Shown piece by piece: positions 863 through 59,534 of a stretch of DNA of 64,000 bases. The stretch comes from Flavobacteriales bacterium. Its GTDB lineage: Bacteria > Bacteroidota > Bacteroidia > Flavobacteriales_F > PHOS-HE28. The stretch spans positions 6,158 to 70,157 of the forward strand of contig JBIIYD010000001.1 of assembly GCA_044347005.1 (NCBI GenBank), given 5' to 3'. The position numbers and the translations under genes were made by a program. Under the pieces are notes generated by a model that worked only from the letters and a program-made list of their open reading frames with translations, searched no databases and had not been told where the DNA came from. Every line of letters starts with the position of its first letter. Positions within the stretch are counted from its first letter, which is position 1.

Positions 863-863
863 G

Positions 864-13667: not shown

Positions 13668-14000
13668 ATGGCAAAAAAGGCTGCTCCTCCCTCCCCGATC
13701 ATTCCGTCCGCGTTGGAGTTGCACGACGAGGCCGAGAACCGCCAGTTCGTTACGCGGGTGGACGGCCTGCGCGCCACCGTGGAATACGACCGCGACGGGG
13801 AGCGGATCTTCCTCACCGGGCTCAACATCCCCAAAAGCCTGCAGCCCTTGGGCCTCGGCGATGCCCTGCTGGAAAGGGTGCTCACCCATGTGGAAGAGCA
13901 GAAGTGGAGGCTCATTCCCACCCACCCGGCCATCAAGGACTACCTGCGCACCCACACGGCTTGGCAGCGGTTGTTGTTGAAGGGGGTGCAGTTGCGGTGA
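13668..14000 (+). CDS. Small GNAT-fold acetyltransferase (YjdJ-like, GNAT_2 type)
   Basis: 110 aa, MAKKAAPPSPIIPSALELHDEAENRQFV...DGERIFLTGLNIPKSLQPLGLGDALLERVLTHV. Confidence 0.6.
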   Translation: MAKKAAPPSPIIPSALELHDEAENRQFVTRVDGLRATVEYDRDGERIFLTGLNIPKSLQPLGLGDALLERVLTHVEEQKWRLIPTHPAIKDYLRTHTAWQRLLLKGVQLR

Positions 14001-14024
14001 GGGGGCGCTGAGGCAGGGACTCGA

Positions 14025-15002: not shown

Positions 15003-15044
15003 CCAACTATTCGCGATCAAACGATCACATTTGCGAGATACAAG

Positions 15045-24024: not shown

Positions 24025-24561
24025 TCAATGTCCTCCGTCCTGGTCCAACAGCTGGTCCGTTTCCTCCTTGAGCTGGTCGAGCACGTCCTTCACCCACTTG
24101 GTCTCCCCGAGCGCGGGTAGCACCAAGGGCGCCGCAGCGCGCACCGGGCCGAACAGAGCGGAGCCTTCACGCGCTTCGCGGGAGGGCATCGAACCCGAGC
24201 TCCAGCCCATGAGCAGGTTGCACACGATGCTTACCGTGAACACGGACCGCAACACGCCGAAGGCGATCCCTGCGAGCTTGTTCGGCAGTTCCAACTGCGC
24301 CAGGTCGATCATGGTGGTCAACACGCGCGCCAGGAGATGTACGGCCAGCAGCACCAGCACGAAGGTGGCCAGAAAGGAAAGTGCTTCGTTGTCCGCACCC
24401 AGGCCGATGGCCTCTGCGACCCTTGCGCTGTAGCGCGCCGCCACCCAGATGCCCAATACCATGGCGATCAGCGAGCATACCTCCACGATGAAGCCACGGG
24501 AAAAGCCCTTGAACGCGGCCAAGGCGAACACAGCGAGCAACAACAGGTCCAACCAGTTCAT
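24025..24561 (-). CDS. cvpA: CvpA-family membrane protein
   Basis: MNWLDLLLLAVFALAAFKGFSRGFI... The 4-TM colicin V production protein pattern. Confidence 0.8.
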   Translation of the reverse strand: MNWLDLLLLAVFALAAFKGFSRGFIVEVCSLIAMVLGIWVAARYSARVAEAIGLGADNEALSFLATFVLVLLAVHLLARVLTTMIDLAQLELPNKLAGIAFGVLRSVFTVSIVCNLLMGWSSGSMPSREAREGSALFGPVRAAAPLVLPALGETKWVKDVLDQLKEETDQLLDQDGGH

Positions 24562-38140: not shown

Positions 38141-38749
38141 ATGTTCGACCTCGTCCAGATCGGTAAAGCCTTCCTCGTGCTATTCGCGGTGATCGATATC
38201 GTGGGCGGCATCCCCATCATTCTTGAAGTCCGTAAAAAGGCCGGCAAGATCTACCCGGCGCGCGCCACGCTGGTGAGCTTGGCCATTATGGTCACCTTCC
38301 TCTATGTGGGCGAGACCATCCTCGGGTTCCTGGGCCTCGACGTGAACTCCTTCGCCGTTGCCGGTTCGTTCGTGCTGTTCTTCATCGCCTTGGAAATGAT
38401 CCTGGGGGTGAAGCTTTTCAAGGAGGACACCAGTGCCCCGGGCCTCACCCCGCCGGAGGAGGATAACAAGATCTACAGCATCGTACCCCTTGCCTTTCCG
38501 GTGATCGCCGGTGCGGGCACCATCACCACCATCCTCTCCTTGCGTGCCGAGATCGAACGGCCGAACATCCTGGCGGCCATCGTGCTGAACATGGTGGTGG
38601 TGGTCGTCGTGCTGCTACTCACCAACCGCATCGAACGCCTGCTGGGCCGGGTAGGCCTGATCGTGCTGCGTAAGGCTTTCGGGATCATCCTGCTGGCCAT
38701 AGCAGTGAAGCTGTTCGCGGGGAATATCACGTATTTGTTCCCGCATTAG
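38141..38749 (+). CDS. marC: MarC/UPF0056-family membrane protein
   Basis: MFDLVQIGKAFLVLFAVIDIVGGIPI. Confidence 0.8.
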   Translation: MFDLVQIGKAFLVLFAVIDIVGGIPIILEVRKKAGKIYPARATLVSLAIMVTFLYVGETILGFLGLDVNSFAVAGSFVLFFIALEMILGVKLFKEDTSAPGLTPPEEDNKIYSIVPLAFPVIAGAGTITTILSLRAEIERPNILAAIVLNMVVVVVVLLLTNRIERLLGRVGLIVLRKAFGIILLAIAVKLFAGNITYLFPH

Positions 38750-43175: not shown

Positions 43176-45029
43176 TCAAGGTACTGCGCGGTGCACCGCC
43201 GTTCGCAGCTGGAGGTCGCGCAGTCGGAAACCGGTTCCGGACAAATTCCAGAGGTAGAGTTTGTTCCTGACCGCCCCGTTCCTTGGTGGAATGCGCATCC
43301 GGATGCTGAACGGACCTTCCTCCAAGGTGTTGGACCAGTAGCTCAATTGGCCATGGTCCGCATCCTCGGTGAAGACCAGGTTCGTAGCACCCTTCCGTTC
43401 GCCATCCCAGGCGATGGACCCCGTGATGAGCAGTTCCGCATACAGCATGCCCGGCACATCCACCGGCAGGTCATTGACCTCGAACGGGAACTCGTTCGCC
43501 CCGAAACACCATCCACCTCCAGCACAGGCCAGCGTGTCCTTGCGGTGCGTGAAGGGCAGCGATCCAGAGAGCCCTTGTTGGAAGAGCACCTTCTCTTCCA
43601 CCGTGCGCTGGCCATCGAATCGCTCGAAGAGGAACACCTCGAAGGCATGCCCGCCCAGCACCTCCATGCGCTCATCGGGAACCAACAGTTCGATCAGGCG
43701 CAGCGTGGTGTCCTGCAGCAGCCGCTCCAACGGCACCCCTGCTTCATTGGGGCCGAAATGGGCATCCCAGACCAGCAGGTCCCCGGGCTGCAGGCCATCA
43801 TCCGGCATCGACTTCCAGGCGCGCTGCGTATCGAAGGGGTCCAGGTCCGCGCGGTAGGCCACATACGGATGGAAATAGATCACCCGTTGGTGGTCCACCG
43901 CTAGCTCCTTTACGCGATCGCCAACGCGGTCCAGGAAGCGTTGATAGGCACCGGCCTGCACCGGAAGTGCCTGCGCGGCAAGCAGGGCCTGCGCGGCAAG
44001 CACGACATACGCTCCCGAGAGTACCAGCCCGACGACCACAGCGACCAAGCGCCCTCCGCTGAGCAAATGCCAGGCACGCGCAAGCACCCACAACGCGAAC
44101 AGCACCAGCAAGGGCATCGAAGTGGCCAGAACGCGCAACAGGCCCAGGGAGCCTTTGGCACCCTGCCACCAGAGCAGGGAGTGTACCACAAGGATGCCCA
44201 CTGCCGGCAGCAGGGCAAGGAGCACCAGGACCCTACGTCGCGTGGCCATGCCGGCGTCCATCGGATGCAGCATGGGAAGTACCAACAAGGATGCACCGAG
44301 CAGGACCAGCAGCGGTATACCGTAAACCAGTTCCGGATGTTGAACGAAATGGGTGAGCGTGCCGCTGCCGTAAATGGCTTCGGCCCCGGTGTAAGGATCG
44401 CGGGTGAACGCCCAGAAGGGTTCGCCCCAGACCAGGGCACCGACCACGGCGTAGATCACATGGCCCACGGCCAACAAGGGAAGCGCATTCCATTGCCGTT
44501 GGAGCGCGAGCCAACCCACCAGCAAGGGAACGACCACGATGTACTCGGGCCGTACAAAAGGCATGAGCGATGCCATCAGGGCGGCCGTGCGATAACGAGC
44601 GTGGTAGCAGGCCAGGACGACCAAGGTCGCAAGCAACCCGAAGAGCACCTCGGTCATGCCTTCCAGCACCATGGTGCCGTACACGGGGACCAACAGCAGG
44701 GCCGGTGCGAACAACCACCGCGACCAAGCAGCCGTGTCCTTGAGCATGCGGTCCGCCGCCCAGGCGGTGGCCACGAAACACAAGGCGTTGAACAGCGTCA
44801 TGCCCCAATGCCCGAGTTGGGCGAAGGGCGAGGCGAGGAGCGTGAACAGCGGCTTGCCCCAATGGTCGAGCAACAGTTCGGGGTGCGCCCACGAATAGCG
44901 GGCGATCTGGTAGTGCAGCACACCATCGCCGCTCTCGAGGATCCCCGGCGACAAGAGCCTGAGCACCACTGCCGCGGCCGCCCAGGTCACCCACCAAAAA
45001 GCAATAGATGCGGTACGTGGTCGTTCCAT
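43176..45029 (-). CDS. Polytopic membrane protein with large C-terminal extracytoplasmic domain (GT-C-like; paralogue of the 49467-51539 gene)
   Basis: ~11 predicted TM helices. C-terminal domain ends ...[11 protein letters not shown], as does the paralogue. Confidence 0.55.
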   Translation of the reverse strand: MERPRTASIAFWWVTWAAAAVVLRLLSPGILESGDGVLHYQIARYSWAHPELLLDHWGKPLFTLLASPFAQLGHWGMTLFNALCFVATAWAADRMLKDTAAWSRWLFAPALLLVPVYGTMVLEGMTEVLFGLLATLVVLACYHARYRTAALMASLMPFVRPEYIVVVPLLVGWLALQRQWNALPLLAVGHVIYAVVGALVWGEPFWAFTRDPYTGAEAIYGSGTLTHFVQHPELVYGIPLLVLLGASLLVLPMLHPMDAGMATRRRVLVLLALLPAVGILVVHSLLWWQGAKGSLGLLRVLATSMPLLVLFALWVLARAWHLLSGGRLVAVVVGLVLSGAYVVLAAQALLAAQALPVQAGAYQRFLDRVGDRVKELAVDHQRVIYFHPYVAYRADLDPFDTQRAWKSMPDDGLQPGDLLVWDAHFGPNEAGVPLERLLQDTTLRLIELLVPDERMEVLGGHAFEVFLFERFDGQRTVEEKVLFQQGLSGSLPFTHRKDTLACAGGGWCFGANEFPFEVNDLPVDVPGMLYAELLITGSIAWDGERKGATNLVFTEDADHGQLSYWSNTLEEGPFSIRMRIPPRNGAVRNKLYLWNLSGTGFRLRDLQLRTAVHRAVP

Positions 45030-45076
45030 GGATGCCCAAAGATGGCGTTCTTCGCACTTCGCGCCACGCGCTTTCC

Positions 45077-46366
45077 ATGACAAGCACCGTGATCCCTTCA
45101 CGATCGGCACAACGGACCGGCCGGGCACTGGCGACCGCGCTGTTCCTGATCACCTTCTTCGTGGGCTGGTATGCGAATGCGTACCGCTTGGATGGTATCC
45201 TGACGCACGGCAGCGACCCCTGGGGCTATTACCAGTTCCTTCCGGCCCTGCTGGGCACGCATGAATGGCTGCACCTGCCGTGGGCCCACGTGCTCGAGAA
45301 CGGCAATTCCATCAGCCTGTTCTCCATGGGAACGGCCATCCTCATGCTGCCCTTTTTCCTGCTGGGTGCCTTGGTGGCGAAGGGCTTGGGCATGCCGGTG
45401 GACGGCTACTCGCTGCCATTCGTGTTCGCACAATTCGCGGCAGCGGCGTTCTACGTTGCGGCCGCTTGTCGACTGCTCTACCATGCCCTTCGCAGGCGTT
45501 TCCCGGCGCGGGTCGCCCTGGTCGTGCCGCTGGTGGTGTACGGCGCCACCAACCTGTTCTTCTACTGCACGCACGAGCCGGGGATGTCGCACGTGTACGC
45601 CTTCTTCCTGTTCGCCTGGCTCTACTACCTCACCGTGCGCATGCTCGAACAAGCACGTGCCGATCGCTTGATCGCGTTGTTCGTGTGTGCGGCCTTGATC
45701 GTTCTGGTCCGGCAATTGAATGCCGTCGCCCTCCTGTTCCCATTGCTGTACGGTGCGCCCTGGCGTGAAGCGCTGCGCCTCCGTTGGCAATGGCTCCGCC
45801 GTTTTCCGGTGGCCGGGGTCACCGGTCTTCTGCTGGCCATCGCATTGGTTGGCCCACAACTGTACTACTGGCATCGGGTAACGGGTGAATGGCTCGTCTT
45901 CACCTATGGCAAGAAAGGGGAAGGATTCACCTGGGCGGAACCCCACCTTTGGGAAGTGCTCTTCAGCCACCAGAACGGGTGGTTCGTCTACACCCCCATC
46001 ATGCTGTTCACCATGGCCGTCCTACTGGTGCGCTCGGTGCGGAACACGACGGACATGCGGCTGGTACTCTTCATCTGGGCGGTGACCTGGTACGTGTATT
46101 CCAGCTGGTGGAGCTGGTGGCTGGGCGGATCCTTCGGTCACCGTGGCTTCATCGAGCATTACGCGTTCCTGTCCATTCCACTGGCCTGGGGCTTGGAGCG
46201 GCTCTTCCGGCGGGGTGTCCTGGTGCGCGATATCGGCACCGCGGCACTGGGCCTGTTCGTGTTCTTCAGCATGCGGCTGACCTTCCTCTACCATTGGCCG
46301 TGGGAAGGGCCGGAATGGAACTGGCAGAAACTCATCGCCATATGGGAACTCGCTTTCACGGGCTGA
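45077..46366 (+). CDS. Polytopic membrane protein (GT-C-like)
   Basis: Hydrophobic throughout. SWWSWWLGGSFGHRGF motif. Confidence 0.5.
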   Translation: MTSTVIPSRSAQRTGRALATALFLITFFVGWYANAYRLDGILTHGSDPWGYYQFLPALLGTHEWLHLPWAHVLENGNSISLFSMGTAILMLPFFLLGALVAKGLGMPVDGYSLPFVFAQFAAAAFYVAAACRLLYHALRRRFPARVALVVPLVVYGATNLFFYCTHEPGMSHVYAFFLFAWLYYLTVRMLEQARADRLIALFVCAALIVLVRQLNAVALLFPLLYGAPWREALRLRWQWLRRFPVAGVTGLLLAIALVGPQLYYWHRVTGEWLVFTYGKKGEGFTWAEPHLWEVLFSHQNGWFVYTPIMLFTMAVLLVRSVRNTTDMRLVLFIWAVTWYVYSSWWSWWLGGSFGHRGFIEHYAFLSIPLAWGLERLFRRGVLVRDIGTAALGLFVFFSMRLTFLYHWPWEGPEWNWQKLIAIWELAFTG

Positions 46367-48672
46367 AGGTGGCCCTGGTGGCGTTGGGGGCATTGGGCTT
46401 CCTGGCGCTGTTCCACCCTGCCTTGATACAGGCCCCCGGTGCTACGCTCTTCCGGGGCAGTGGCGATGGGCTGAAGAACTACTTCGTCTTCGGCTACCAC
46501 CTGAAGCACGACAGCAGCTACATGCAGTTCGAGGGGATGAACCACCCCTTCGGCGAACAGATCGGCTATCCGGATGCGCAGCCTGCTCTGGTGAACGCGG
46601 CAAAGCTGGCTTCCGGCCTGTTCCCCGCGTTGCGCAATGAAAGCGTGGCCATTATCAACCTCGCTGTTCTCGTGGGCTGGTTGCTCACGGCGGTTTCCAT
46701 CTACCTGTTGCTCCTGTATTTCGGGGTCTATTGGGCCTATGCGGCGATCGGCGGGATCGCGCTCATGGCTCTTTCGCCCCAAGCGCTACGCATGGTGGCG
46801 GGCCATCACGGCCTGACCTATGGTTGGGCCATCGTGTTGCCGGTGTTGAGCTACCTGCGGGTGCGCACCGGACAATGGCCATGGCGTGCCGCTATTGGTG
46901 GTGCGGTACTGTTGCTGCTGGGCATCCAGCTGCACCAATACACGGGCATGATCGCACTGGCCCTGCTGGGGGTGCTCTTCCTGTTGGACCGCCCTGTGCA
47001 TACCCTGCTCGGCGAGCCGCAGCGGGCAAAGGCACTGCTGCTGCTCTTGTGCGCCCCGGTGTTCGCCTACCTCTTGATACAGGGCCTTAGCGATCACCAC
47101 ACCGGCCGCACGGACAAGCCGCTGGGCTTCTTCGATTACCGCACGGACCGTCATGGCATACTTGCCCCCTATGCCCATTATGGCGACCCCCTGGCCCAGC
47201 GCATAGTTCCCCTTGACGGACCTGCGGACCTTGAGGCGTCCACCTACCTGGGCCTGGCGGTTCTGCTTGCCGCGGCCGTGTTGTTCATGGTGGCCTCGAT
47301 CCTGCTGCTGCGTCCCACCCTACTGCGCGAGCACGGTACGGGTTGGCCCCGCAGGCTCACGCTGCTGGTGCTGGCAGCTATGGTACTGCTGGCTTTCGCC
47401 GTGGGCGTGCCCTTCTCCTCCGCAAGAGGCTGGCTGCCATGGTCGGTGCCCTTCATCGGCCAATTCCGCTCACCGGGGCGGTTCGGTTGGGCGGCCTACT
47501 ACATGTTCGGCATAGCCGCGATCTACAGTGCCTGGTGGCTGTGGCAGCAGGCCCGAGGAATGGCCCGCTGGCCCGCAGCGCTGTATGCCGCGCTGATCCC
47601 GGCGCTCTACCTCTATCAAGGGACTTACTTGCATACGGCCATTGCACAGGAGATCCATGGCGATCGCAATGTGCTCCATCCCGACCTGCTCACTGCGGAA
47701 GAGAAAGCGCTCATCGAGGCGGCGAGCCGGACACCGTACAGGGCCATGGTGGCGGTGCCCCACTTCCTGAACGGATCGGACGAGCTGTTGCTCCTGCCGG
47801 ACGAGCCCACCATGCGTTCCGCGCTCACCCTCGCCTACCACACGGGTATTCCGCTGATGTCATCCAACCTGGCCCGCACCAGCGTTACGGAAACCTTCCA
47901 ACAGCTGGGCGTCTTCAACGCACCGTGGTATCCACGGCCCATTGCTGCGCGCTTCGCGCCGGACGACCGGATCCTGTTGGTCCGGGGGGCCGAGCCAGGC
48001 AGCGCCTTCGAGGCAGCGCATTTCGCAAGGGCGGAGCCGCTGATCACCGCAGGGGGTGTGGAGCTGCGCAGCATCCGGGCATCGGAGCTCTTCCTGGACC
48101 GAAGGGCCGAACTGTTCGCCGAGTTGGAAAGCACGTACAGCGACACGACCCGCGATGGGGGGTGGCAAGTGCTGCCATCCGCAGCTCCCTTCCATTTCCA
48201 GGACCACGAGGACCGGCCTTCACCATTGGCGTATCGCGGAAAGGGCGCCTATCAGGGCGTGCACGGCGAGTTCAATGTGGTGGCCTCGGTACCGCCCGGC
48301 ACCCTGCAGGAGGGCGAGCACATCGCTTCGTTCTGGGTCCATAACAAGGGCCCCTTGCGGCTGCATACGTTGGTCTGCATTACGCAGCAGGCACTGGATG
48401 CGCCCCAGGACGAATGGATCAGTTGTGGCGATACCCGCTTTTCACGCGTGGTGAACGGCGATTGGTCGCTCTTCGAGTTGCGCTTCAGCGTGGACCGATC
48501 GCAGGACCATTTCGGCATCAAGTTGAAGGGCGCCGACCATTACCGCGATACCATCACCGTGGACGAGGTCTTGATCCGCCCGGCGGATGCGCTGGTGTTC
48601 CGCGTGTTGGAACGTGATGCGCAGGGGATCAGGGCTGTGCACTACAATGGGCACTACCTGCAGCGCCCGTGA
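46342..48672 (+). CDS. Polytopic membrane protein with C-terminal soluble domain (YfhO/GT-C-like)
   Basis: Start MGTRFHG overlaps the previous stop. N-terminal TM bundle plus ~350-aa C-terminal domain. Confidence 0.5.
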   Translation: MGTRFHGLKVALVALGALGFLALFHPALIQAPGATLFRGSGDGLKNYFVFGYHLKHDSSYMQFEGMNHPFGEQIGYPDAQPALVNAAKLASGLFPALRNESVAIINLAVLVGWLLTAVSIYLLLLYFGVYWAYAAIGGIALMALSPQALRMVAGHHGLTYGWAIVLPVLSYLRVRTGQWPWRAAIGGAVLLLLGIQLHQYTGMIALALLGVLFLLDRPVHTLLGEPQRAKALLLLLCAPVFAYLLIQGLSDHHTGRTDKPLGFFDYRTDRHGILAPYAHYGDPLAQRIVPLDGPADLEASTYLGLAVLLAAAVLFMVASILLLRPTLLREHGTGWPRRLTLLVLAAMVLLAFAVGVPFSSARGWLPWSVPFIGQFRSPGRFGWAAYYMFGIAAIYSAWWLWQQARGMARWPAALYAALIPALYLYQGTYLHTAIAQEIHGDRNVLHPDLLTAEEKALIEAASRTPYRAMVAVPHFLNGSDELLLLPDEPTMRSALTLAYHTGIPLMSSNLARTSVTETFQQLGVFNAPWYPRPIAARFAPDDRILLVRGAEPGSAFEAAHFARAEPLITAGGVELRSIRASELFLDRRAELFAELESTYSDTTRDGGWQVLPSAAPFHFQDHEDRPSPLAYRGKGAYQGVHGEFNVVASVPPGTLQEGEHIASFWVHNKGPLRLHTLVCITQQALDAPQDEWISCGDTRFSRVVNGDWSLFELRFSVDRSQDHFGIKLKGADHYRDTITVDEVLIRPADALVFRVLERDAQGIRAVHYNGHYLQRP

Positions 48673-48675
48673 CCA

Positions 48676-49386
48676 TCAAAGGCCGTATTTCACAATGCAC
48701 CAGATCGCGCGGAAACCGTCCTTCCAGCCGATCTTCTTGCCTTCGGCATAGGTACGTCCGTAGTAGCTGATGCCTACTTCGTAGATCCGGATGTCCTTGA
48801 TGCGCGCGAGTTTCGCAGTGACCTCGGGCTCGAAGCCGAAACGCTTCTCCTGCAGCTTCAGGCCTTTTGCGATATCGCTTCGGATCAGCTTGTAGCAGGT
48901 CTCCATGTCCGTGAGGTTCAAGTTGTTGAACGCGTTGGACAGGAAGGTGAGGAAAGCGTTACCGATGCTATGCCAGAAGAAGAGGATGCGGTGCGGGTGG
49001 TGGCCCATGAACCGGGATCCGTAGACCACATCGGCGAAGCCCTCGACCACGGGCCGCAACAGGTCATTGTATTCCCGTGGATCGTATTCCAGGTCGGCGT
49101 CCTGCACCAGCAGGTAATCGCCTGTGGCCTCCTGTATACCGCGGTGGATAGCCGCGCCCTTGCCCATGTTCTTCGGCTGCTGATAGAACCGGATGCCCAT
49201 TTCAGGATGGGAGGCCATGTAGTGCTCCACAGCCTGCACGGTGCCATCCTTGGACCCGTCGTTCACGATCACCACCTCCTTCTTGATGCCGTGGTCCAGC
49301 ACCACGTTGCGCACCTTGTCCAGGATCAGGTGTATGGTCCGCTCCTCGTTGTAGGCGGGGATGATGATGGAAAGCGTTTGGACCAT
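48676..49386 (-). CDS. GT2 polyprenyl-phosphate sugar synthase (Dpm1/GtrB/ArnC-like)
   Basis: [11 protein letters not shown]...[11 protein letters not shown]...DADLEYDP (DxD). Confidence 0.8.
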
Positions 49387-49466
49387 GCAACCGATGCGAC
49401 TAAAAGGAAGTGGGCGAAGATAGAGCGATGCGGTGGGTGCGGGATCACGCACTGCAATGCTTCCCA

Positions 49467-51539
49467 CTAGGGTATCGGCCCATTGCCTTCGCCCATCATC
49501 ACCCTTCTCACCTCCACCTTGAGCCCTTCGAAGGAGAACGGTTTCCCACTGCGGTTCCACAAGTAGAGCTTATTGCGCACTTCATAGGGGTGGCGCAACA
49601 GCATCCAACGGAACTCGAACGGGCCTTCGACCAAGCGCTTGCCCTCATTGCTGATCTGGCCGTTCGCATCGTTCTCGGCGAGGATCAACAAACTTTCATC
49701 CGTAGCCAGGGCGCCGTCCATGTGGAACACGCCCCGTACGATGACCTCCGTGCGCAAAACCTGCTTACCATAAGCTGGCAGCTCGTCCATTTCCAGCGGG
49801 TATTCGCCACTGCCGAAACACCATCGGGCGGCACCCGCTCCCTCGCATGGAATGGTATCGACCCGAGCCTTCACCGCAGGGTGCAGCGGACTTCCTGCTG
49901 CGAGCACCAAGTCGTTCTCCTCGGTCTCGGGTCCCTTGTACAGGTCGTAGATGCGGACCCATTTGTGGCGAGTGATGGGACGATCCAAGTAGGGCTTCAC
50001 CACGGGGTCCTCCAGCCAGCGGTCCTCGGCGAACATGAGGTAACGTGCCCCCCGAGCAATGAGCCGTTCGAAGGTGGCGGGGTCGCTCCAGTCATTGCCA
50101 TAGTTGGTATAGCCCTTCCGGCCCATGAGGTACAACGACCCATTGATGGTGATGTCGTCGAGGAAGATGACCAGTTCGTCGCGACCGATGCCCAACGAGT
50201 CCAGCACCGGCCCCATGTCCAGCGTGCTCCGGATGCCATAATAGTCGGTCGCGCTCCAGAAGGGCAGCTCGTGCTCGTGGTAAAGGGGCAGGATCTTCTT
50301 GGTATCCACCGGCTCGAAGACCGTGTACCGCATGGTCATGTTGGTGGCCGCATACGCCACATTGAAGACCAGGAGCGCGCTGAAGGCCACCTTTAGCCAG
50401 CGTGCATGGAACAGGTCCGGATGATCGCGTCGCAACCACCAGAGGTAGGTGGCCCACAGCACCAGCAGTGCGATCATCGGGTTGATGAAGTAGTAGTCGT
50501 GGCTGTCCAGCGAATGGAACCACAGCAGGGTGTACGCCACCACGCCCAATAGAAGCAAGGCATTGAGCAGGGCCACCGGCCAGGGGAGGCGCCTTGCGTT
50601 GACCAGCAAGGCCACGAAGGCCACGCCCAGAGCGACCCACACCGAGGTGTCGAAGATCTGGAACACGAGGATCCGCTTGGCGAAGGTCCATGCGCGCTCC
50701 ACCTCTTCCGCCGTCATTTCCCAGATCGGCCAGATGTTGTTGAAGGTGTAGCGCCCGTTGTGTTCATTGTTGTACGCTTCGGCGTGGACGTACCAGGCCA
50801 GCACGGCCAGCAATGCAACGGCGATGGAGGACCAGCCCAGGCGCGGCGGAGGGAGCAGATCGCGGTACGAGCCAAAAGCCTTGGGCACCACGGTGGCCAG
50901 GGCCAGCATGGCCATGATCGCCACGAGGCTGATGCCGGCGCTGACCTTGAGCAAGGTGGCCAGGGCGAAGAAGGCCATGGCCCACAGCCACCAACGCCGC
51001 TGGTGCTCCTGCCCATAACGCACCAGGAAGTACCAGCCGATCAACACCAGGTCGAATGCGGGAACGTCCGTCAGGAACCCCACGCTGTAGTAAACCAGGA
51101 CCGGCGAAGTGAACAACAGCAGGGCCGTACAAAGCGCCCAGAAATCACTTTGCAGCAAGCGGCGCAGGGTGTGGAAGAAGGCCCAGGTGGCCATGAAGTG
51201 CAGCAGGATGCCGAACAGACGGTAGGCGAATTCGCTCTGCCCGGTGATCTTCCACACCTGGCCCATGGCCCAGTAGATCAAGGGGAATTCGCCTGCACTG
51301 TTGCCGGAGGTGCCGTCATCGCCGATGCGCGCATGGATCTCAGGCTCGAAAAAGCCACGGTCGCCAGTGTGGTAGTTCTCGGTAATGGAGAGGCAATCCG
51401 CCTGGCGCCAGAGGTGGTAGGGATAGGGTCGGGTATTCAGGATGCGGCCGCCTTCGTAGACCGAGAACATCAGGACGAACCCCAGCACGAGCATCCAGCC
51501 CGGGCCGATCCGTTGATGGAACGCGCGCAAGGTCCGCAT
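49467..51539 (-). CDS. Polytopic membrane protein (GT-C-like; paralogue of 43176-45029)
   Basis: N-terminal loop [15 protein letters not shown]-terminus ...[15 protein letters not shown]. Confidence 0.55.
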
Positions 51540-51550
51540 GGTCGCGCAGC

Positions 51551-52207
51551 TCAGAAACTCATTTCGGGAACGACCCCTTCCACCACCAACCTCCCTTCGG
51601 TCTTCGAAACGATCTCTTCAACACTGACCCCCGGTGCGCGTTCCAGCAGCTTGAAGCCCTCGGGGGTGATGTCGAAAACGCCGAGGTCGGTCACCACTTT
51701 CTTCACGCAACCCACACCGGTAAGGGGCAGCGAACAGCGCTTCAGCAGCTTGCTCTCGCCCGCCTTGTTGGCGTGCATCATAACCACGATGATGTTGTCG
51801 GCACTGGCCACCAGGTCCATGGCACCACCCATGCCCTTCACCATTTTGCCCGGGATCTTCCAGTTCGCGATGTCGCCGTTATCGGCCACCTCCATGGCAC
51901 CGAGCACGGTGAGTTGCACATGCTGCCCGCGGATCATGGCGAAGCTGGTGGCACTGTCGAAAATGCTGCTGCCGGGCAACAACGTCACGGTCTGTTTGCC
52001 GGCATTGATCAGGTCGGCATCCTCCTCCCCTTCCCACGGAAAGGGACCCATGCCCAGTATGCCGTTCTCGCTCTGCAGCACCACGTTGATGCCTTCGGGG
52101 ATGTAGTTGGCAACCAGGGTCGGTATGCCGATGCCGAGGTTCACGTAGTAGCCGTCCTTCAACTCGCGCGCAATGCGCCTGGCCATCTGGTCCTTGTCGA
52201 GTGCCAT
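51551..52207 (-). CDS. scoB: 3-oxoacid CoA-transferase subunit B
   Basis: GIGIPT...SENG (catalytic Glu context). Full length. Confidence 0.9.
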
Positions 52208-52210
52208 GAT

Positions 52211-53980
52211 CTATTCCTTCGCTTGGGTTTCCGGGGCGTTCCGTTGCAGGATGTGCAGGCGCGCCTTCTGCAAGGAAAGCGGCACCCGCGCTGGGTTCCA
52301 AATGTAGATCGCCACACGTTGCGCCTCCACCGGTATCGGCGGCAATACGTGGGTAATGCGCAAGGGCAGGCCCTGCCGCCCGCGTGGATACTGCCCGATC
52401 GACCGGGAACCGTAGTAGGCGTGTCCCATGTCCGCGTTGTTCACTTCCACGACCAGGAACGGACCTTCGGCAGGCCTTCGATCCAGCAGCAGCACCCCGC
52501 TGAGGTCGAACGAAAGCGCACGTCCCGTGAGTGTCGCGGTGGCCGGTAGCGGCAGTTCCCGGTATTCGGCATCGGAGGTGGCGAACGAAATGCTGGTATC
52601 CAGGACGGTCGTGGTGCTGTGCGCCGCATTGCGGACCATCAGGGTCAAGCCACCCGGACCTTCCAGCACGGTATGGAATCGTGTGGAAGCGTCATCGGCC
52701 TGCCACCGGGAAACCAGCAGCAGGTCCGCTTCTTCCAAGGCAATGTGGTCGGTCTGAAGGGTCGTCAGCGGCTCTTGGTCGAACAGGCGTCCGTATTCCC
52801 ACGAAGGCATTTGCCGCACTCCGCCTCCAACAACGAGGCCCCGCCCCGCCTGCTGTTGGCGAAGAAGCACCTCCGCTTCGAATTTCGGGGGTATGGCGCC
52901 ATCGCCCGAGGAACGGGTGGTACCCACATGGATCCCGAGCACCATGTGAAGCGCGGGAAGCAACAGCAACAGCGCCAGCCAACGGCGATGAGCGCCAGCA
53001 ACGATGGCCCGGTCCAACGCAAGGCCCCAGCCCAGCAGGAACAAGGGCAACCACGGAAGCGCGTCGTGGACCAGGTCAGTGGGTGCTTGGAAGGCGAAAT
53101 ACAACGAGGGCCACCCAACGAGCAATGCGAGCGTGGACAACAACACCGTGCGTGGCCCACCGCCGGAATACGGCCCCCCAACGAGCCCGAGCCATGCCAT
53201 GCAACCTAAGGACAGCACGAGCGACCATACAAGCCATTGTGCGTGTGTCGCAAAGACCAGGTCCATCCACGTTCGGAGCTTTTCGGCTACGTACCATTCG
53301 GCATCCGTGCCCTTCGCGTCGAAGCCCATGTGGAGCAACAGCCCGGAGAGGACCGCCACCAAGGCCCAGGTCCCCAGTCTTGTCCACCGATCGGCAGCAC
53401 CCGAACGAAGCACCACCACAAGCACCGCCAATTCGCCCACCAGCCACAAAGGCTGCATGGCCGTTGCGGAAAAAGCCACGGCCACGAAGGCGAGCGCGGC
53501 CCGGAGCACGTGACGCGAACCGGGTTCATGGGGTATGCGGCCCAGGTGCCAGAGCGCCATGAAGGTGAACGCCATGGCCAGTGACTGCCCGCCCGCCAGG
53601 GCGAACATTTCCACTGCAAAGGGCATGAGCAGGAGCGCGATCCACAGGCACCAGCGGAGCAGCACATCCTGCACGAGACCGCCCAAGCGGAAGGCATATC
53701 CGGCAAAGAGCACGAAGGCCAACAACGAGAGGACCCGCTGGGGGAACAGGGCCGGACCCACCAGCGCGGTGGAGACCATGGCCCACCAACCGGACAAAGG
53801 ATGGTCAATGGGCTGTACAGCGGGCTGTACCCAGGCGAAAAAGCGCAAGGCCTCCTCGTGGGTGATGGGTACCACGAATGCGCGCACCACCAGGTGAACG
53901 GCCATCAATGCTGCCAGCGCCGCGAAAAGCAGCGCCTGCATGCGTGTGGTCGGCTCCGTGGGCCTGAACGTGTCGGTCAT
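52211..53980 (-). CDS. Polytopic membrane protein (GT-C-like paralogue)
   Basis: Start taken at MTDTFRP, which overlaps the upstream stop by 4 nt. The long ORF extension upstream is likely spurious. Confidence 0.5.
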   Translation of the reverse strand: MTDTFRPTEPTTRMQALLFAALAALMAVHLVVRAFVVPITHEEALRFFAWVQPAVQPIDHPLSGWWAMVSTALVGPALFPQRVLSLLAFVLFAGYAFRLGGLVQDVLLRWCLWIALLLMPFAVEMFALAGGQSLAMAFTFMALWHLGRIPHEPGSRHVLRAALAFVAVAFSATAMQPLWLVGELAVLVVVLRSGAADRWTRLGTWALVAVLSGLLLHMGFDAKGTDAEWYVAEKLRTWMDLVFATHAQWLVWSLVLSLGCMAWLGLVGGPYSGGGPRTVLLSTLALLVGWPSLYFAFQAPTDLVHDALPWLPLFLLGWGLALDRAIVAGAHRRWLALLLLLPALHMVLGIHVGTTRSSGDGAIPPKFEAEVLLRQQQAGRGLVVGGGVRQMPSWEYGRLFDQEPLTTLQTDHIALEEADLLLVSRWQADDASTRFHTVLEGPGGLTLMVRNAAHSTTTVLDTSISFATSDAEYRELPLPATATLTGRALSFDLSGVLLLDRRPAEGPFLVVEVNNADMGHAYYGSRSIGQYPRGRQGLPLRITHVLPPIPVEAQRVAIYIWNPARVPLSLQKARLHILQRNAPETQAKE

Positions 53981-55806
53981 TCGTGGTCCGGGGTCAGGGT
54001 TTGTTTTCCGACACGCCCGTCGACCATGGCGATCGGTCGATGGTCGGGGTTCCAAAAGTAGAGGACGCGGGTGTCGGCATCGGGCACGGCAGGCATCCTC
54101 ACGAGCAAGCGCAGGCGCTCTCCGTTCCAGTGCGGTGAAATGCTCGCTATCCGGGTGGTGTGGTAGTGCAACAGTTCCTCGCCCAGCTTCTGCTCCACCA
54201 CCAGATGCAGATCGAGGAACGACGCACCCGAGGCCAGGGAACACTCCACGGTGAACAAGAAGTCGACGCTGCCATCCGACCCCTCCGAACGCCACAATTC
54301 CAGGAACTCGCGGTCGCTTTGGGCGAACGAGAACGTGGACCATTGCACGGGCCCGAGGACCAGCGGGGAAGCGCGTTCCAGCAGATGCAGGCCAGGACCG
54401 GGTGCAACGTCCACTTCGCGGTAGCCCACGAGCGCCTGCTCCAGAAAACGCTCGTCCACGATCCGGATGTCGGTAGGGGCGTTGGGAAAGCCTTGTGCAT
54501 CGGGTGGGTTCAGCACAACACCCTGCAGGCGTGCCGCGTAAGGCAGCGCCAAGGCGAGCTGGTGGTACGTGCCTATCGTAAGTGGTCGATCGACACCGGC
54601 CTGACGTTCACCGATCCACTGAACGAAGCGGGCGGGTACCGATTGTTCTGGCCATAGGACCGTATGGTCCAGGTTCGCCGTGATCACACTGCGAAAAGGC
54701 AGTACCAGCAGGATGGCCGCAGCCCAACGCCACCGTAGGTCGGTGCTGGCCAACGCATCCGCAGCGAATGCCAGGAGCAGGATGGCCAGAGGAAGCAAAT
54801 GGAGGGCGGCACGGTCCTCCGGGTAATTGACGCCAAGGACCAAGGCCATTCCGATGCGGCTGGCCACATCGGCCCAAAGCAGGAATGCGACCAACAACAA
54901 GGGCGTTCGCCATGTGCGGCCCACCAACAAGGCCATACTGGCCGCGATGACCGCCATGGCCGAAACGATGAGCAAGGCGGGGTGCAGGCCACCGAGCACG
55001 TACTTGGACAACGACGAAAGGGTCACCGCAACGAACCCGTCCAACGAGCCGTGGTACAGCAGCCCCCTACGCTTCATTTCCCACGAAAGCAGGATACCCA
55101 CGAGCAAGGGGAGCAAGCCCAACAGGACCCAAAGGATGAAGGAGCGAACAGGGAAGCGACCCGCGCTACGCCCGCGCCGTACGAGGTCGAAGGCCAGAAG
55201 CGCTACGACCATGGCCCACAGCGGCACCATGGAAAGCACGGCGAAGTCGGCCAGCGCGAGGCCGATCAGGATCCGTGCAAGATGCTTGTCCGATGGAAGA
55301 GCGCGATAGCGCAGCATACCATCCACCGCAAAGGCGAGAAAAGCCATGCCTAAACCATATCCACGGAACAGGGAAAAGAACTCGAGCAGGAAAGGACAAG
55401 CGAGCAAGGCCGACCACATGCACCAGCGCACGAGCCGGTCCTGCAACAGGAGGCCGACCCGGTACACCGACCATGCGTAAATGGGAAAGGCCAATACACT
55501 GCCCACCCTTGAACCAAAGAGCGAAAGCCCCCAGAACTTGTACCCCAGCACCCCGATGGCCGAACTCAGGAAGTGGTTGCCGGCGTCCCAGAGCGCCACG
55601 TAGGGTAGAAAAGTCCCTCGCTCAAGGAACCAATAGAGCGAAGTGCTTTCGTCATGCACCCAAGGGACAAGTGCTGCACGCAGAATGACGTAAGTCCATA
55701 TGACCGAGGCAATGGTTACGAACGCCTTTCGTTCACCGGAACTTCCAATGTGGAAATGAACGGATGTGGAGATGTGGGCTGCCGACACGCGATCTGCGAG
55801 GTTCAC
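53977..55806 (-). CDS. Polytopic membrane protein (GT-C-like paralogue); N-terminal ~20 codons overlap a repeat and may not be coding
   Basis: Hydrophobic multi-TM ORF. C-terminus ...VLYFWNPDHRP resembles the KLYLWN paralogues. Confidence 0.45.
   Translation of the reverse strand: MNLADRVSAAHISTSVHFHIGSSGERKAFVTIASVIWTYVILRAALVPWVHDESTSLYWFLERGTFLPYVALWDAGNHFLSSAIGVLGYKFWGLSLFGSRVGSVLAFPIYAWSVYRVGLLLQDRLVRWCMWSALLACPFLLEFFSLFRGYGLGMAFLAFAVDGMLRYRALPSDKHLARILIGLALADFAVLSMVPLWAMVVALLAFDLVRRGRSAGRFPVRSFILWVLLGLLPLLVGILLSWEMKRRGLLYHGSLDGFVAVTLSSLSKYVLGGLHPALLIVSAMAVIAASMALLVGRTWRTPLLLVAFLLWADVASRIGMALVLGVNYPEDRAALHLLPLAILLLAFAADALASTDLRWRWAAAILLVLPFRSVITANLDHTVLWPEQSVPARFVQWIGERQAGVDRPLTIGTYHQLALALPYAARLQGVVLNPPDAQGFPNAPTDIRIVDERFLEQALVGYREVDVAPGPGLHLLERASPLVLGPVQWSTFSFAQSDREFLELWRSEGSDGSVDFLFTVECSLASGASFLDLHLVVEQKLGEELLHYHTTRIASISPHWNGERLRLLVRMPAVPDADTRVLYFWNPDHRPIAMVDGRVGKQTLTPDHE
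55747..55778. repeat. Inverted copy of the CCACATCTCCACAT motif (left arm flanking the four-helix-bundle gene)
   Basis: aatgtggaaatgaacggatgtggagatgtggg is the reverse complement of cccacatctccacatccgttcatttccacatt. It matches sequence at 56286-56350. Confidence 0.7.
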
Positions 55807-56216
55807 TGGACCTTGTTCATACGCGCCTTGATGATGATGCTTGCAAGGATGTTCCGGATGCTCTGTAGGTCCTCCAGCATTCCTTCCTCATAAGGAAGCT
55901 CATCCGCGTACTTGCATAGTTTTAGCCAGAACCGTGTTTCGCTGGCTTCCTTGGCGGAGACCTTCATCTTGTGGATGAAGTCATCGCGACTCTCCGCATC
56001 CTGGGCCTCATGCACATTGGCTCCGATGGATGTGCCGCATTTGAAGAGTTGCCGCGAAGCATCATACCAGCCCGAATCACGCAAGCCTTTGCTGAAGCGG
56101 ACCACACGTAGTGCGAATTCAAAACTCTTGTCAACGATCAAATTGCCAGTGGTCCGGTCAAAACCATATTCCGCAGGTCCTTCTTGAAATTCCCAAGTAT
56201 CCTGGTTGTTGTCCAT
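55803..56216 (-). CDS. Four-helix-bundle protein (TIGR02436 / '23S rRNA intervening-sequence protein', Avd-like family)
   Basis: FEFALRVVRFSKGL...CGTSIGANVHEAQDAES...SAKEASETRFWL matches the family pattern. Confidence 0.75.
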   Translation of the reverse strand: MDNNQDTWEFQEGPAEYGFDRTTGNLIVDKSFEFALRVVRFSKGLRDSGWYDASRQLFKCGTSIGANVHEAQDAESRDDFIHKMKVSAKEASETRFWLKLCKYADELPYEEGMLEDLQSIRNILASIIIKARMNKVQ

Positions 56217-56285
56217 CGGTCATGGTGTTGGTTGCTCATGGAACAGGACCCTGACCCACCCCGCGATCACCACCCTCTCCGGGAT

Positions 56286-56368
56286 CCCACATTTTCACAT
56301 CTCCACATCCCCCCTCATTTCCACATCCACCTCACATCTCCACATCCTCTCATCTTCACATCTTCTTC
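56286..56368. repeat. Array of ~6-8 pyrimidine-rich CACATCYC repeats (right arm) between scoA and the four-helix-bundle gene
   Basis: cccacattttcacatctccacatcccccctcatttccacatccacctcacatctccacatcctctcatcttcacatcttc. Confidence 0.75.
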
Positions 56369-57054
56369 CGTACCGTACGCTGTTCAATGCGCTTCTCGTA
56401 CTGCTCGCCTTGGAAGATCCGTTGCACGAAGATCCCTGGGGTATGGATCTCGTTCGGGTGCAATTCACCGGGCTCCACCAACTCCTCGACCTCGGCTACC
56501 GTGATGGTACCGGCCATGGCCATCATGGGGTTGAAGTTTCGGGCCGTGTCCTTGAACACGAGGTTGCCGAAGCGGTCCCCTTTCCATGCCTTCACCAAAG
56601 CGAAGTCTGCACGGAGCCATTGTTCCATCACGTACATCTTGCCGTGGAACTCGCGGGTCTCCTTGCCTTCGGCCACTTCGGTGCCATAGCCCGCAGGGGT
56701 GAAGAAGGCGGGAATGCCCGCACCTCCTGCACGGCATCGCTCGGCCAAGGTGCCTTGCGGGATCAGCTCCACTTCCAGCTCGCCGCTCAGCATCTGGCGT
56801 TCGAACTCGGCGTTCTCGCCCACGTAACTGCTGATCATCTTGCGGATCTGCTTCGTCTGCAGCAGCAGGCCCAGGCCGAAATCGTCCACACCCGCGTTGT
56901 TGCTGATGCACGTAAGCCCTTTCACGCCTTTACGCACCAGTGCGGCGATGCTGTTCTCCGGGATGCCGCACAGTCCAAAGCCCCCGACCATCAGCGTCAT
57001 GTTGTCCTGTATCCCTTCGAGCGCCACCTCGGCGTTGGCCACCACCTTGTTCAT
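56356..57054 (-). CDS. scoA: 3-oxoacid CoA-transferase subunit A
   Basis: [33 protein letters not shown]. Full-length subunit A. Confidence 0.9.
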
Positions 57055-57122: not shown

Positions 57123-59534
57123 CTAGTCCCAGTTCGGACTGCCGCTCGGGGCTGCGCCGCCCTTGGCCCGTTGGCGGCAATCGATGCTGGCCGGATCGAA
57201 GTCCTTCGGCTTTTCGAAGTCGCCGGTACTGATCTCGATGGTGGGGTCGGCGTAGACCTTGTTCATGTAGTAGCCGTAGATCGGCAAGGCCATGTTGGCG
57301 CCCTGTCCCTTGTCCGTGGAACTGAAACGCACACTTCGGTCATCGGCACCCGTCCACACCCCGGTGACCAGGTCCGGGGTTATGCCGATGAACCAACCGT
57401 CGGAGTTGTTCTGTGTGGTGCCGGTCTTGCCTGCCGTGGGGAACTTGATGTTGGCGTAGCGTTGCCTGCTACCCCAGCTGGTGCGTAGGCGCAGGCCGGT
57501 GCCCACCACCTTGCCGGTACTGGGGTTGTAGGCGCCATCGGTAACCCCTTTCAGCATCTTGAGCATGGTGTAGGCGGTAACCTCATCGAGCGCCTCGTAG
57601 GTCTTGGGCGACACATCGTAGATGGTGTTGCCGTTCTTGTCCTCGATCCGGGTAAAGACGATGGGTTCGATGAAGACCCCTTGGTTGGCGAACGAGGCGA
57701 AGGCCCCGGTCATCTCCATCAGCGTTAGGTCGGCCACGCCCAGACACAATGATGGAACGGCTTCAAGCGGACTCTTCACGCCCATGTGCCGGGCGAGAAC
57801 GGTGACCGCCTGTGGGCCGTACTGCTTCATGAGCCATGCCGTGATGGTGTTCATGGAATTGGCCAAGGCATACTCCACGGTGACCATGCCACCGTAAACC
57901 GCATCGCTGTTCTGGGGGCACCAGTCGGGCTGGCCCGGCGGCATTTCGAAGCACACCTTCTGGTTGGGCAGTTCGCGGCAGGGGTCCATGCCTTCGCGGA
58001 TGGCCGTGGCGTAGACGAAAGGCTTGAAGGTGGACCCCACTTGGCGACGCGCTTGCTCCACGTGGTCGTACTGGAAGTGCCGGAAGTCGATGCCGCCCAC
58101 CCAGGCTTTCACGAAGCCCGTGCGCGGGTCCATGCTCAACAGTCCGCTCTGCAGGAAGCTCTTGTAGTAGCGGATCGAATCCATCGGGCTCATCACCGTA
58201 TCCACCTCGCCCTTCCAGGTGAACACCCGCATTTTCGCGGGTTTCTCGAACTCCTTCGGGATGTCCTCCTCCTTCACGTAGGGCCAATAGTGGTCGCAGC
58301 CCCCTTTGTCCGGCCGGCAATGGTAGTGTTCCGATCCTTCGTGTTGGACGCGCTCGATATACCGCGCAGGGCGTTCACAGTTGCCGCACTGCTTGCCGGA
58401 AAGGATGCGGAAACGCACGCTTCGTTTCATGGCCGTGTTCAGGATGCCATCTATCTCCTCCTGGCTTACGCGGTGGTCGAAGGGCCTGTTCTTCTTCCGG
58501 GCGATGTCCTTGAAGAAGTCGGGCTGCAACTCCGAGGCCAGGTGCTCCTTCAGGCCCCATTCGCCGTACTGCTGCATGCGCCGGTCCAGCGTGGAATAGA
58601 TGCGCAGGCCATCGGTGTAGATGTCGTAGGGCGAGCCATCGGCCTTGGCGATCTTGTAATTGCCCTTGTCGTCCTTTTCGCTGAGGAGGGCTTGGAGCTT
58701 GGCACGCAGCACTTCGCGGAAGTAGGGTGCCGGTCCTTCGGTATGGTCCACACGCTGAAAACGCAGGCCCAGCGGCAGCACCTTCAAGGAATCGTATTCC
58801 GCCGTGGAAAGGAACCCGTTCTTGCGCATCTGGTCCAGCACCACCATGCGGCGGGTCATGGTGGTATCGGGCCTGCGCAAGGGGTTGAAGAGCGCCGGGT
58901 TCTTGCACATGCCCACCAGCATGGCCGCCTCTTCGATGCGCAACGAGTCGGGCGTGGTGTTGAAGTAGACCCGCGCCGCACTGTTGATACCCACCGCCTG
59001 GTTGATCCAGTCGAAGCGGTTGAGGTACATCGCGATGATCTCGTCCTTGGTGTACTGCCGTTCCAGTTTGGCGCTGATGATCCACTCCTGGAATTTCTGG
59101 AAGGTGCGTTTGATGAAGTTGGACGAGCGGTCCGTGAAAAGCATCTTGGACAGCTGCTGCGTGAGCGTGCTGGCCCCACCTTTCTTGCCTAAGAAGACCG
59201 CAGCACGCAAAGTGCCCCGGAGGTCTATGCCGCTATGTTCCCGGAAGCGCTCATCCTCGGTGGCGATCAAGGCGTTCACCACGTTCGGGCTGATGCGGTC
59301 GTAGGTGACGGGGATCCTGTTCTCGCGGTAGTACTGGCCCATCTGGCTGCCATCGCTGAAGAGCACGGCCGTAGCCAGATCACTGCGCGGATTCTCGAGG
59401 TCCTCGGTACCCGGCAGGTCGCTGTTGGCCGCAATGGTCAGCAGCAGGGCCATGGCCAGCACCGGTGACAACACCAGTCCCCACCACAACACATACCATT
59501 TGCGGGGCTTATTGCTCTGCTTGCGTTCGGCCAT
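57123..59534 (-). CDS. mrcA: Penicillin-binding protein 1A (bifunctional transglycosylase/transpeptidase)
   Basis: GT51 motifs ([20 protein letters not shown]). Transpeptidase SxxK/KTG context. Confidence 0.9.

Follow-up and report, generated by a model that had tools for sequence, protein, structure and literature searches.

The window analysed here is a stretch of 64,000 nucleotides (nt) from a Flavobacteriales bacterium (assembly GCA_044347005.1, contig JBIIYD010000001.1, positions 6,158 to 70,157 of the forward strand), and our subject is a candidate glycosylation cluster within it. Six genes for polytopic membrane proteins, labelled G1, G2, G3, G5, G6 and G7, lie next to a gene for a Dpm1-like glycosyltransferase (GT2) and are interleaved with scoA and scoB, which encode the two subunits of 3-oxoacid CoA-transferase (Table 1, in window coordinates). 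The open reading frames (ORFs) listed in the initial annotation of this DNA, which had been made from the sequence without database searches, were found at the positions given there or within 27 nt of them. They also match public gene calls: identical contigs from a Joint Genome Institute (JGI) metagenome and a Logan assembly carry genes for proteins of 617, 429/444, 785, 236, 690, 218 and 589 amino acids (aa). The public call for G3 begins 27 nt earlier, making the start at 46315 (785 aa) more likely than the one at 46342. The identities proposed for scoA and scoB were confirmed, both matching their family models (TIGR02429 and TIGR02428) well above the cut-offs. Three membrane-protein genes had been placed between these two; we find two, G6 and G7, together with an unrelated gene, labelled by its family PF05635, whose product is not a membrane protein and stands outside the glycosylation set.

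From the PF05635 gene through G5, consecutive genes are separated by -4 to 11 nt, and GT2 follows 80 nt after G5, an arrangement that fits one minus-strand transcript. On the opposite strand G3 converges on GT2, with 3 nt between them. The start codons of G1 and G2 are divergent and 47 nt apart (2 nt if G2 uses its 444-aa start), and G2 and G3 overlap by 52 nt, so that the space for promoters is very small.

Table 1. Genes of the candidate glycosylation cluster and their upstream neighbour.
Gene	Position	Strand	Product and features
G1	43176-45029	-	617-aa polytopic membrane protein; GT-C-like N-terminal domain and C-terminal "LYLWN" domain
G2	45077-46366	+	429-aa membrane-only protein with predicted GT-C fold and no C-terminal domain; alternative start 45032 gives 444 aa
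G3	46315-48672	+	785-aa DUF6311 protein; predicted 11-helix GT-C-fold membrane domain, periplasmic alpha/beta domain and C-terminal carbohydrate-binding-module-like beta-sandwich
GT2	48676-49386	-	236-aa Dpm1-like glycosyltransferase without transmembrane segments; final gene of the minus-strand operon
G5	49467-51539	-	690-aa PMT_2-type GT-C protein with C-terminal "LYLWN" domain
scoB	51551-52207	-	218 aa; 3-oxoacid CoA-transferase subunit B (TIGR02428, 330 bits, cut-off 243.6)
G6	52211-53980	-	589-aa GT-C-like protein, divergent branch of the G6/G7 family; C-terminal IYIWNP motif
G7	53977-55806	-	609-aa GT-C-like protein of the G6/G7 family; C-terminal LYFWNP motif
PF05635 gene	55803-56216	-	137-aa protein of the four-helix-bundle / 23S-rRNA intervening-sequence protein family (PF05635, 5.8e-17; also TIGR02436)
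scoA	56356-57054	-	3-oxoacid CoA-transferase subunit A (TIGR02429, 281 bits, cut-off 128.5)
PBP1a-type gene	57123-59534	-	class A penicillin-binding protein (Pfam Transgly 3e-52, Transpeptidase 3e-17); upstream neighbour on the same strand

Our results support the view that the six membrane proteins are GT-C-like and not transporters, with support that differs in kind: Pfam matches for G5, structure models for G2 and G3, and profile links for G1, G6 and G7. Hydropathy profiles gave 7-12 segments in each of the six, in line with the polytopic architecture of GT-C glycosyltransferases. G5 matched the Pfam families PMT_2 (1.7e-13, 51.6 bits, cut-off 26.1) and PMT (8.8e-7, 29.2 bits, cut-off 22.7). 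Scans of the single proteins against Pfam and NCBIfam returned nothing for G2, G3, G6 and G7, and scans of each member of the families returned weak, consistent hints of GT-C families. Among these, PMT_2 weakly matched 4 of 20 members of the G6/G7 family (best 3e-4), and relatives of G1 weakly matched GT87 and TMEM260-like enzymes, G1 itself having a weak match to the putative glycosyltransferases LA_3751/LA_3752 of NCBIfam (8e-7). A protein 100% identical to G3 (P0001) carries the precomputed label PF19830 (DUF6311, a domain of unknown function), as do all 26 of its homologs. The YfhO family (PF09586) had no match at E <= 0.1 in the six window proteins and was not listed in the scans of their relatives, which reported E up to 1 or 10; nor did the Pfam scan find MIR, TPR or other known luminal domains in the six.

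The AlphaFold2 model of G3 (pLDDT, the predicted local distance difference score, 85; predicted TM-score 0.84) shows about 11 transmembrane (TM) helices, followed by an alpha/beta domain and then by a beta-sandwich. It was compared with the Protein Data Bank (PDB) using Foldseek, and of the 23 matches that reached E <= 1.2e-3, 13 were GT-C enzymes, including STT3, AftD, PglB, AglB, AftA, DPY19 and Pmt4 (E 4e-7 to 1e-3). Most of the other matches fell on the C-terminal end, where the last ~170 residues resemble CBM22, a porphyran-binding carbohydrate-binding module (CBM) and other carbohydrate-binding jelly rolls. The G2 model (pLDDT 94.2, predicted TM-score 0.94) has about 12-13 TM helices and is helical to its final residue. 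Of its 36 best matches, 34 were GT-C enzymes, with TM-scores of about 0.5 (STT3, Pmt4, PglB, ALG9, EmbA/B, PimE, ArnT and DPY19), and the other two were chains of the glycosylphosphatidylinositol (GPI) transamidase. The models thus point to a GT-C fold for G2 and G3 and to a CBM-like end for G3; the initial annotation had named a fold outside the glycosyltransferases as grounds for refutation, and this check came out in favour of GT-C. A transporter identity was considered and rejected: for G2, apart from the two GPI transamidase chains, matches outside GT-C begin at E > 0.2 with a Foldseek probability of ~0.1. Extracytoplasmic C-terminal domains had been attributed to all six proteins; G2, which at 429 aa ends within its modelled helices, has to be removed from that list.

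Conserved acidic residues were placed by alignment in the first loop of four families, the G5 equivalent not being established. In the G6/G7 family, H51-D52-E53 follow the first TM segment, H51 and E53 being invariant and D52 conserved in at least 90% of a 53-sequence alignment. The G1 family has invariant E32 and D35 directly after this segment, the G2 family an invariant D47 in the loop after it, and the G3 family an invariant G50-D51 pair.

Pairwise comparison with BLASTP connected G6 with G7 as full-length paralogs (27% identity over 586 aa, 2e-22) and G1 with G5 over the last ~150 aa alone (33%, 1e-20); it found no similarity of G2 or G3 to the other membrane proteins. We therefore turn for deeper relationships to family alignments, built from the related loci described below and from database homologs and compared profile to profile with hhalign. 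The G6/G7 family matched the G5 (PMT_2) family with 97.1% probability (E 6e-11, 504 columns) and the G1 family with 97.2% (540 columns), and the G2 family with 88.5%. No profile-level link to any other family was obtained for G3, over its whole length or over its C-terminal domain. Judged by their profiles, G1, G5, G6 and G7 form one divergent superfamily, G2 is more distant and weakly linked to it, and G3 represents a separate GT-C family. The six had been described as paralogs; this is too strong and is rejected, since G3 is unlinked in every comparison.

The C-terminal motifs reported in the initial annotation are present as described, RNKLYLWN in G1 and G5, LYFWNPDH in G7 and IYIWNPAR in G6, and they mark a real shared domain, which we call the YxWN domain. 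Taken alone, the C-terminal domains of G1, G5 and G6/G7 are homologous by profile comparison (96.8-99.9%, with 99.7-99.9% for G1 against G5), and long members of the G2 family bear the domain too. It is rare: a search of 1.84 billion proteins gave 28 representative clusters. In full-length matches it forms the C-terminus of proteins of ~500-690 aa, and shorter matches are probably fragments. A tape-measure protein of a phage (3006 aa) gave one match (E 7e-4), which was set aside as weak, doubtful and uninformative. Four related loci (L004, L013, L016 and L019) encode G5 homologs of ~520-550 aa that match just residues 1 to ~550 of G5 and, with gene ends as mapped, appear to lack the YxWN domain, suggesting that it is gained or lost as a module; in L013 and L019 there are tandem copies of G5.

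These families are so far uncharacterised. The G6/G7 family comprises 138 homolog clusters, all from uncultured Flavobacteriales/Bacteroidota and none with a Pfam match, and the G2 family comprises 128; the G2, G1 and G6/G7 families have no Pfam model. Homologs that carry names are all "hypothetical", with the exception of two evidently automatic JGI labels.

GT2 is the probable source of a lipid-linked sugar. It matches PF00535 (1e-32), and its closest solved homolog is the dolichyl-phosphate-mannose synthase (DPMS) of P. furiosus (5mlz, 6e-17), which aligns from residue 25 to 236 with residues 5-219 of GT2, followed by GtrB (sll0501, 5e-13) and ArnC (4e-10). In the alignment, D96-A97-D98 correspond to the DAD metal site that DPMS and GtrB have. 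In NCBIfam, ordinary GT2 families cover just the first ~110 residues, and full-length alignment is limited to AglJ, PpgS and a dolichyl-phosphate (Dol-P)-hexose transferase, all below their equivalog cut-offs. GT2 thus combines the features of DPMS-type enzymes, namely a GT-A domain, the DxD/DAD motif and a C-terminal acceptor half alignable to them, and from its homologies we regard it as a probable polyprenyl-phosphate hexose synthase. This bears out its description as GtrB/Dpm1-like: DPMS is the best solved homolog, the DAD site is kept, and the full length aligns solely with polyprenyl-phosphate glycosyltransferases. Across relatives, identity of the main GT2 ortholog is 78-94%, and with one locus excepted it is 84-94%. 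In L007, two GT2 genes stand in tandem (12791-13507 and 13589-14317, with 56% and 87% identity to the window gene), a hint that this species has a second lipid-linked donor.

A scan for G5 in one genome per Genome Taxonomy Database (GTDB) species gave 18 related loci, which were mapped by tblastn. All come from metagenome-assembled genomes (MAGs) of uncultured Flavobacteriales/Bacteroidota, and the isolate names of several indicate wastewater-treatment plants as the source. The adjacent pair scoB-G5 is present in all 18 loci, and GT2 lies downstream of it in 17 of the 17 that reach that far, sometimes with other membrane-protein genes between G5 and GT2. Genes of the G6/G7 family separate scoA from scoB in 13 of the 16 loci that have both; the number of copies in this junction is none in three loci (L003, L004 and L010), one in five, two in seven and three in one, the window having two. 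In L013, scoB (3680-4330) is preceded not by scoA but by a gene for a 1169-aa repeat-rich surface protein (50-3559), and the order continues as scoB-G5-G5'-GT2. Since the scoB-G5-GT2 order is kept even there, it holds together more tightly than scoA-scoB does.

When scoA, scoB and GT2 were combined in a neighbour-joining tree, the three genomes with an empty junction shared one side of a single split, so that one old gain, or one loss, suffices to explain them. The G6/G7 family tree divides into deep subclades, and the place that their members take in the cluster changes from genome to genome, which points to ancient duplications followed by unequal loss and by rearrangement. These trees are compatible with the arrival of a G6/G7-family gene between scoA and scoB on one occasion, early in the history of the clade, after which it was duplicated, lost and reordered. 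Compared with the closest relative (L002), scoA is 96% identical, scoB 94%, GT2 94% and PBP1a 86%, whereas the membrane proteins reach 78% (G2), 71% (G5), 70% (G1), 64% (G3), 58% (G7) and 56% (G6); scoB is 83-94% identical across the relatives. Evolution is much faster in the transferases than in the donor synthase, most of all in the two whose genes separate scoA from scoB. The initial annotation had called the system diversified, and this is supported both by these rates and by the variation of copy number and gene content among relatives.

Other parts of the cluster vary as well. G1 and G3 were each detected in a subset of the loci, the shortness of some loci limiting this count, and certain loci have G2 and G5 in duplicate. 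Further large polytopic genes occur in L012 (12434-13840), L015 (13128-14534), L016 (11669-13072), L010 (12978-14798) and L005 (12080-13651, and 14518-16281 on the minus strand). Between G5 and GT2, relatives have one additional polytopic family with a "YPLVYSDSGAY" loop after the first TM segment and no Pfam match, and another that matches PMT_2 (2e-6). The GT-C repertoire of the clade exceeds the families and copies seen in the window. In four loci from long-read MAGs (L009, L012, L014 and L017), many genes are split into consecutive frames; these probably reflect sequencing frameshifts, not pseudogenes, and were left out of the alignments. PBP1a matches directly upstream of scoA in seven loci (L002, L003, L004, L008, L010, L012 and L015) and had no match in several others with more than 4.9 kb of sequence upstream of scoA, so this neighbourhood is not universal.

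The PF05635 gene stands apart from this history. It is absent from all related loci, and its GC content is 0.51, against ~0.61 in the genes around it. On its two sides lie the arms of a 34-nt inverted repeat (55748-56366) made of GGATGTGGAGATGTG units, a sequence with four copies in the window, all at this site, against 0.1 expected. In the predicted RNA the two arms pair to form a long stem, with the ORF enclosed between them. The downstream arm codes for residues 10-20 of G7, whose GTG start overlaps the stop codon of the PF05635 gene. The architecture is that of ORF-carrying intervening sequences of 23S rRNA, with the difference that the gene here sits inside an mRNA operon. This is the only gene of the cluster that looks recently inserted. 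The spacer between scoA and the PF05635 gene contains the sole tandem array of the region, and the repeat around the gene is its sole notable inverted repeat; within the GT-C and GT2 genes we found no homopolymers of 7 or more, no arrays of short-unit repeats and no invertible-promoter-like repeats.

The presence of GT-C-like membrane proteins alongside a Dpm1/GtrB-like GT2 is best read as a lipid-linked donor used by GT-C transferases, and we consider it reasonably probable that the locus is a lineage-specific envelope glycosylation cluster, belonging to a clade of uncultured high-GC Flavobacteriales, that follows this polyprenyl-phosphate-sugar/GT-C route. By homology, GT2 would act as a soluble or peripheral enzyme at the cytoplasmic face, using a nucleotide sugar to load polyprenyl phosphate with a hexose. 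A protein encoded outside the cluster would then flip the lipid-linked monosaccharide, and the six GT-C proteins, of at least three deeply diverged families, would pass the sugar at the periplasmic face to different acceptors, or to different positions on an envelope glycoconjugate or protein. The YxWN domain of G1, G5, G6 and G7, if these proteins have the predicted orientation, and the CBM-like end of G3 probably hold the acceptor.

Several observations weigh against this reading. The GT-C status of G5 comes from Pfam and that of G1, G6 and G7 from profile-profile links of ~97%, and searches of every family profile against PDB sequences gave chance matches alone. The proposed link from GT2 to the GT-C proteins is one of gene neighbourhood, and part of that neighbourhood is transcribed separately: G2-G3 and G1 are two further transcription units, distinct from the GT2 operon. 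GT2 has no hydrophobic segment in its 236 aa, whereas GtrB, ArnC and archaeal DPMS have TM helices at the C-terminus, and its membrane association is therefore assumed; human DPM1 and the catalytic domain of mycobacterial Ppm1 are likewise without TM segments. Finally, we found no flippase gene of the GtrA, SMR (small multidrug resistance), MATE (multidrug and toxic compound extrusion) or Wzx type in the window or the related loci, in agreement with the absence of a GtrA-like gene reported in the initial annotation. The search covered every ORF coding for 85-220 aa and three or more hydrophobic segments, the Pfam GtrA model not being scanned against every ORF. It recovered two small multi-TM genes in the window, both far from the cluster (CvpA, 24025-24561, and MarC, 38141-38749); two other small ORFs had sequences unlike those of membrane proteins and were judged spurious by eye.

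Periplasmic glycosylation by three components is well documented, including the GT136 pentofuranose systems (PMC11127046). With these, with Gtr (GtrA/GtrB/GtrC) and with CsbB-GtcA-YfhO, the cluster shares a GtrB-related GT2 adjoining polytopic GT-C proteins (G5 lies 80 nt upstream of GT2, and G3 converges on it), as well as the implied flow from nucleotide sugar to polyprenyl-phosphate sugar to periplasmic transfer. It differs from the Gtr type in several respects. No adjacent GtrA, SMR or MATE flippase gene was found; GtrB has two TM helices, whereas GT2 has none despite its homologous catalytic domain; a Gtr-type system has one GT-C protein per synthase and this cluster six; and Gtr-type genes lie in O-antigen or prophage loci, in contrast to the interleaving with scoA and scoB here. 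Unlike in CsbB-YfhO, the GT-C proteins are not YfhO and bear a clade-specific C-terminal domain.

The pattern of one synthase and many GT-C proteins is closer to Dpm1/Ppm1 biology, that is, to eukaryotic Dol-P-mannose and to mycobacterial Ppm1 with PimE/Mpt and Pmt. The common points are a synthase closest to DPMS and free of TM segments and, as proposed here, one donor serving many GT-C families that include a PMT_2-type enzyme. There, GT-C genes are dispersed over the genome and what they make is known, whereas here they are clustered and vary between species, and mannose is not established as the sugar. ArnC/ArnT (GT83) offers a further parallel, because the Pfam families of G5 include ArnT-like enzymes and GT2 is related to ArnC; the cluster, however, lacks ArnA/B/D, which make 4-amino-4-deoxy-L-arabinose, and ArnE/F, while ArnC has TM helices and G5 has an extra C-terminal domain. 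G5 shares the PMT/PMT_2 membrane domain of the PMT (GT39) enzymes, and none of the six has their luminal MIR domain. G3 belongs to DUF6311 (PF19830), a family with no assigned function. In the library of papers searched, we found nothing on DUF6311 or on a GT-C/Dpm1 system in Bacteroidota.

Other explanations of the same genes deserve consideration. The six GT-C proteins could work one after another on a single periplasmic polymer or glycolipid, each attaching the same lipid-linked sugar through a different linkage, as PimE, MptA, MptB and MptC do with Ppm1 in mycobacteria, or ALG3, ALG9 and ALG12 with Dpm1 in the endoplasmic reticulum. A single, highly conserved donor synthase beside many GT-C proteins is what such an assembly line would need, the lack of TM segments in GT2 is shared with Ppm1 and DPM1, PimE and ALG9 are among the fold matches of the G2 model, and the CBM-like domain of G3 fits a glycan acceptor. 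The content and copy number of the GT-C genes nonetheless differ widely among close species (0-3 G6/G7 genes; G1 and G3 patchy, with some loci truncated), which is hard to square with a fixed multi-step pathway, and the cluster has no priming enzyme or polymer export genes, making the assembly line unlikely in our view. A role in protein O-glycosylation, with G5 and its relatives as PMT-like Ser/Thr O-hexosyltransferases that use the product of GT2 and with paralogs differing in protein substrate, would account for the PMT_2 and PMT matches of G5 and the weak TMEM260-like (O-mannosyltransferase) matches of G1 relatives. PMT proteins have a DE motif in loop 1, which the HDE motif of G6/G7 recalls. 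In Bacteroidota, moreover, O-glycans have mannose at the reducing end, and the transferase that places it is still undiscovered (PMC12871550). PMT_2 and PMT, however, also include ArnT-like modifiers of lipids and glycans, no MIR or TPR domains were found in the six proteins, and these families are confined to one Flavobacteriales clade while the O-glycosylation system is phylum-wide; we hold this role to be distinctly unlikely. A more specific version, in which G5 and GT2 form a stepwise Ser/Thr O-hexosyl (mannosyl) system that installs the reducing-end mannose and G1, G2, G3, G6 and G7 extend or diversify the glycan in the periplasm, is offered as a long shot.

The STT3, PglB and AglB oligosaccharyltransferases that head the fold matches of G3 and G2 would fit a route through undecaprenyl diphosphate, in which the GT-C proteins are oligosaccharyltransferases, ligases or polymerases and GT2 is an ordinary cytoplasmic enzyme building the oligosaccharide. 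At 10-15% identity, the Foldseek ranking does not discriminate among GT-C classes. The full-length alignment of GT2, limited as it is to polyprenyl-monophosphate glycosyltransferases, argues against this route, as does the absence nearby of an initiating phosphoglycosyltransferase or Wzx, and no WWDxG-type oligosaccharyltransferase motif turned up, although no search was aimed at one; we rate the route as very improbable. As for the origin of the arrangement, the initial annotation had proposed a recent insertion that split scoA from scoB and created a phase-variable system. The two genes are indeed split, and copy number differs between species, but the split is common to 13 of 16 related species, a single old gain explains it, and the GC content of the GT-C genes (0.61-0.64) equals that of their neighbours, with the small PF05635 gene as the sole recent arrival. 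Phase variation finds no basis in the GT-C and GT2 genes or their starts, given the negative repeat searches. The initial annotation had itself named a conserved arrangement in related genomes as what would refute the insertion, and this is what the related loci show. We give this account practically no credence. More modest than the O-glycan proposal, though likewise speculative, is the idea that the scoA-scoB junction may be a hot spot of gain, duplication and loss of fast-evolving GT-C genes, varying the cell surface under pressure from phages or predators.

That a GT2 makes a polyprenyl-phosphate sugar for GT-C enzymes acting outside the cytoplasm is already known, and the locus reveals no new principle. 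What it adds are at least three GT-C families without a Pfam model or with just a DUF label (G6/G7, G1 and G2; DUF6311 for G3), a rare C-terminal domain seen almost solely on these enzymes, one synthase paired with many GT-C proteins and no local flippase found, and CoA-transferase subunit genes stably separated across a clade by up to ~5.5 kb of membrane-protein genes. Surface glycans in wastewater communities affect flocculation and phage susceptibility, and the cluster offers candidates for the missing periplasmic steps of glycan biosynthesis in Bacteroidota.

Scans of the window against Rfam and for tRNAs gave no matches, and a sigma-70 promoter and terminator scan, whose model is ill-suited to Bacteroidota, stayed at or below the expectation from shuffled sequence. 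Elsewhere in the window, a low-GC island on the plus strand (14025-16976, GC down to 0.52) has genes for an HNH_2 endonuclease (PF13391, 1e-13) and, after it, a Schlafen-group-3/DUF2075-type helicase (PF09848, 2e-53); it may be a defence island or an inserted mobile element.

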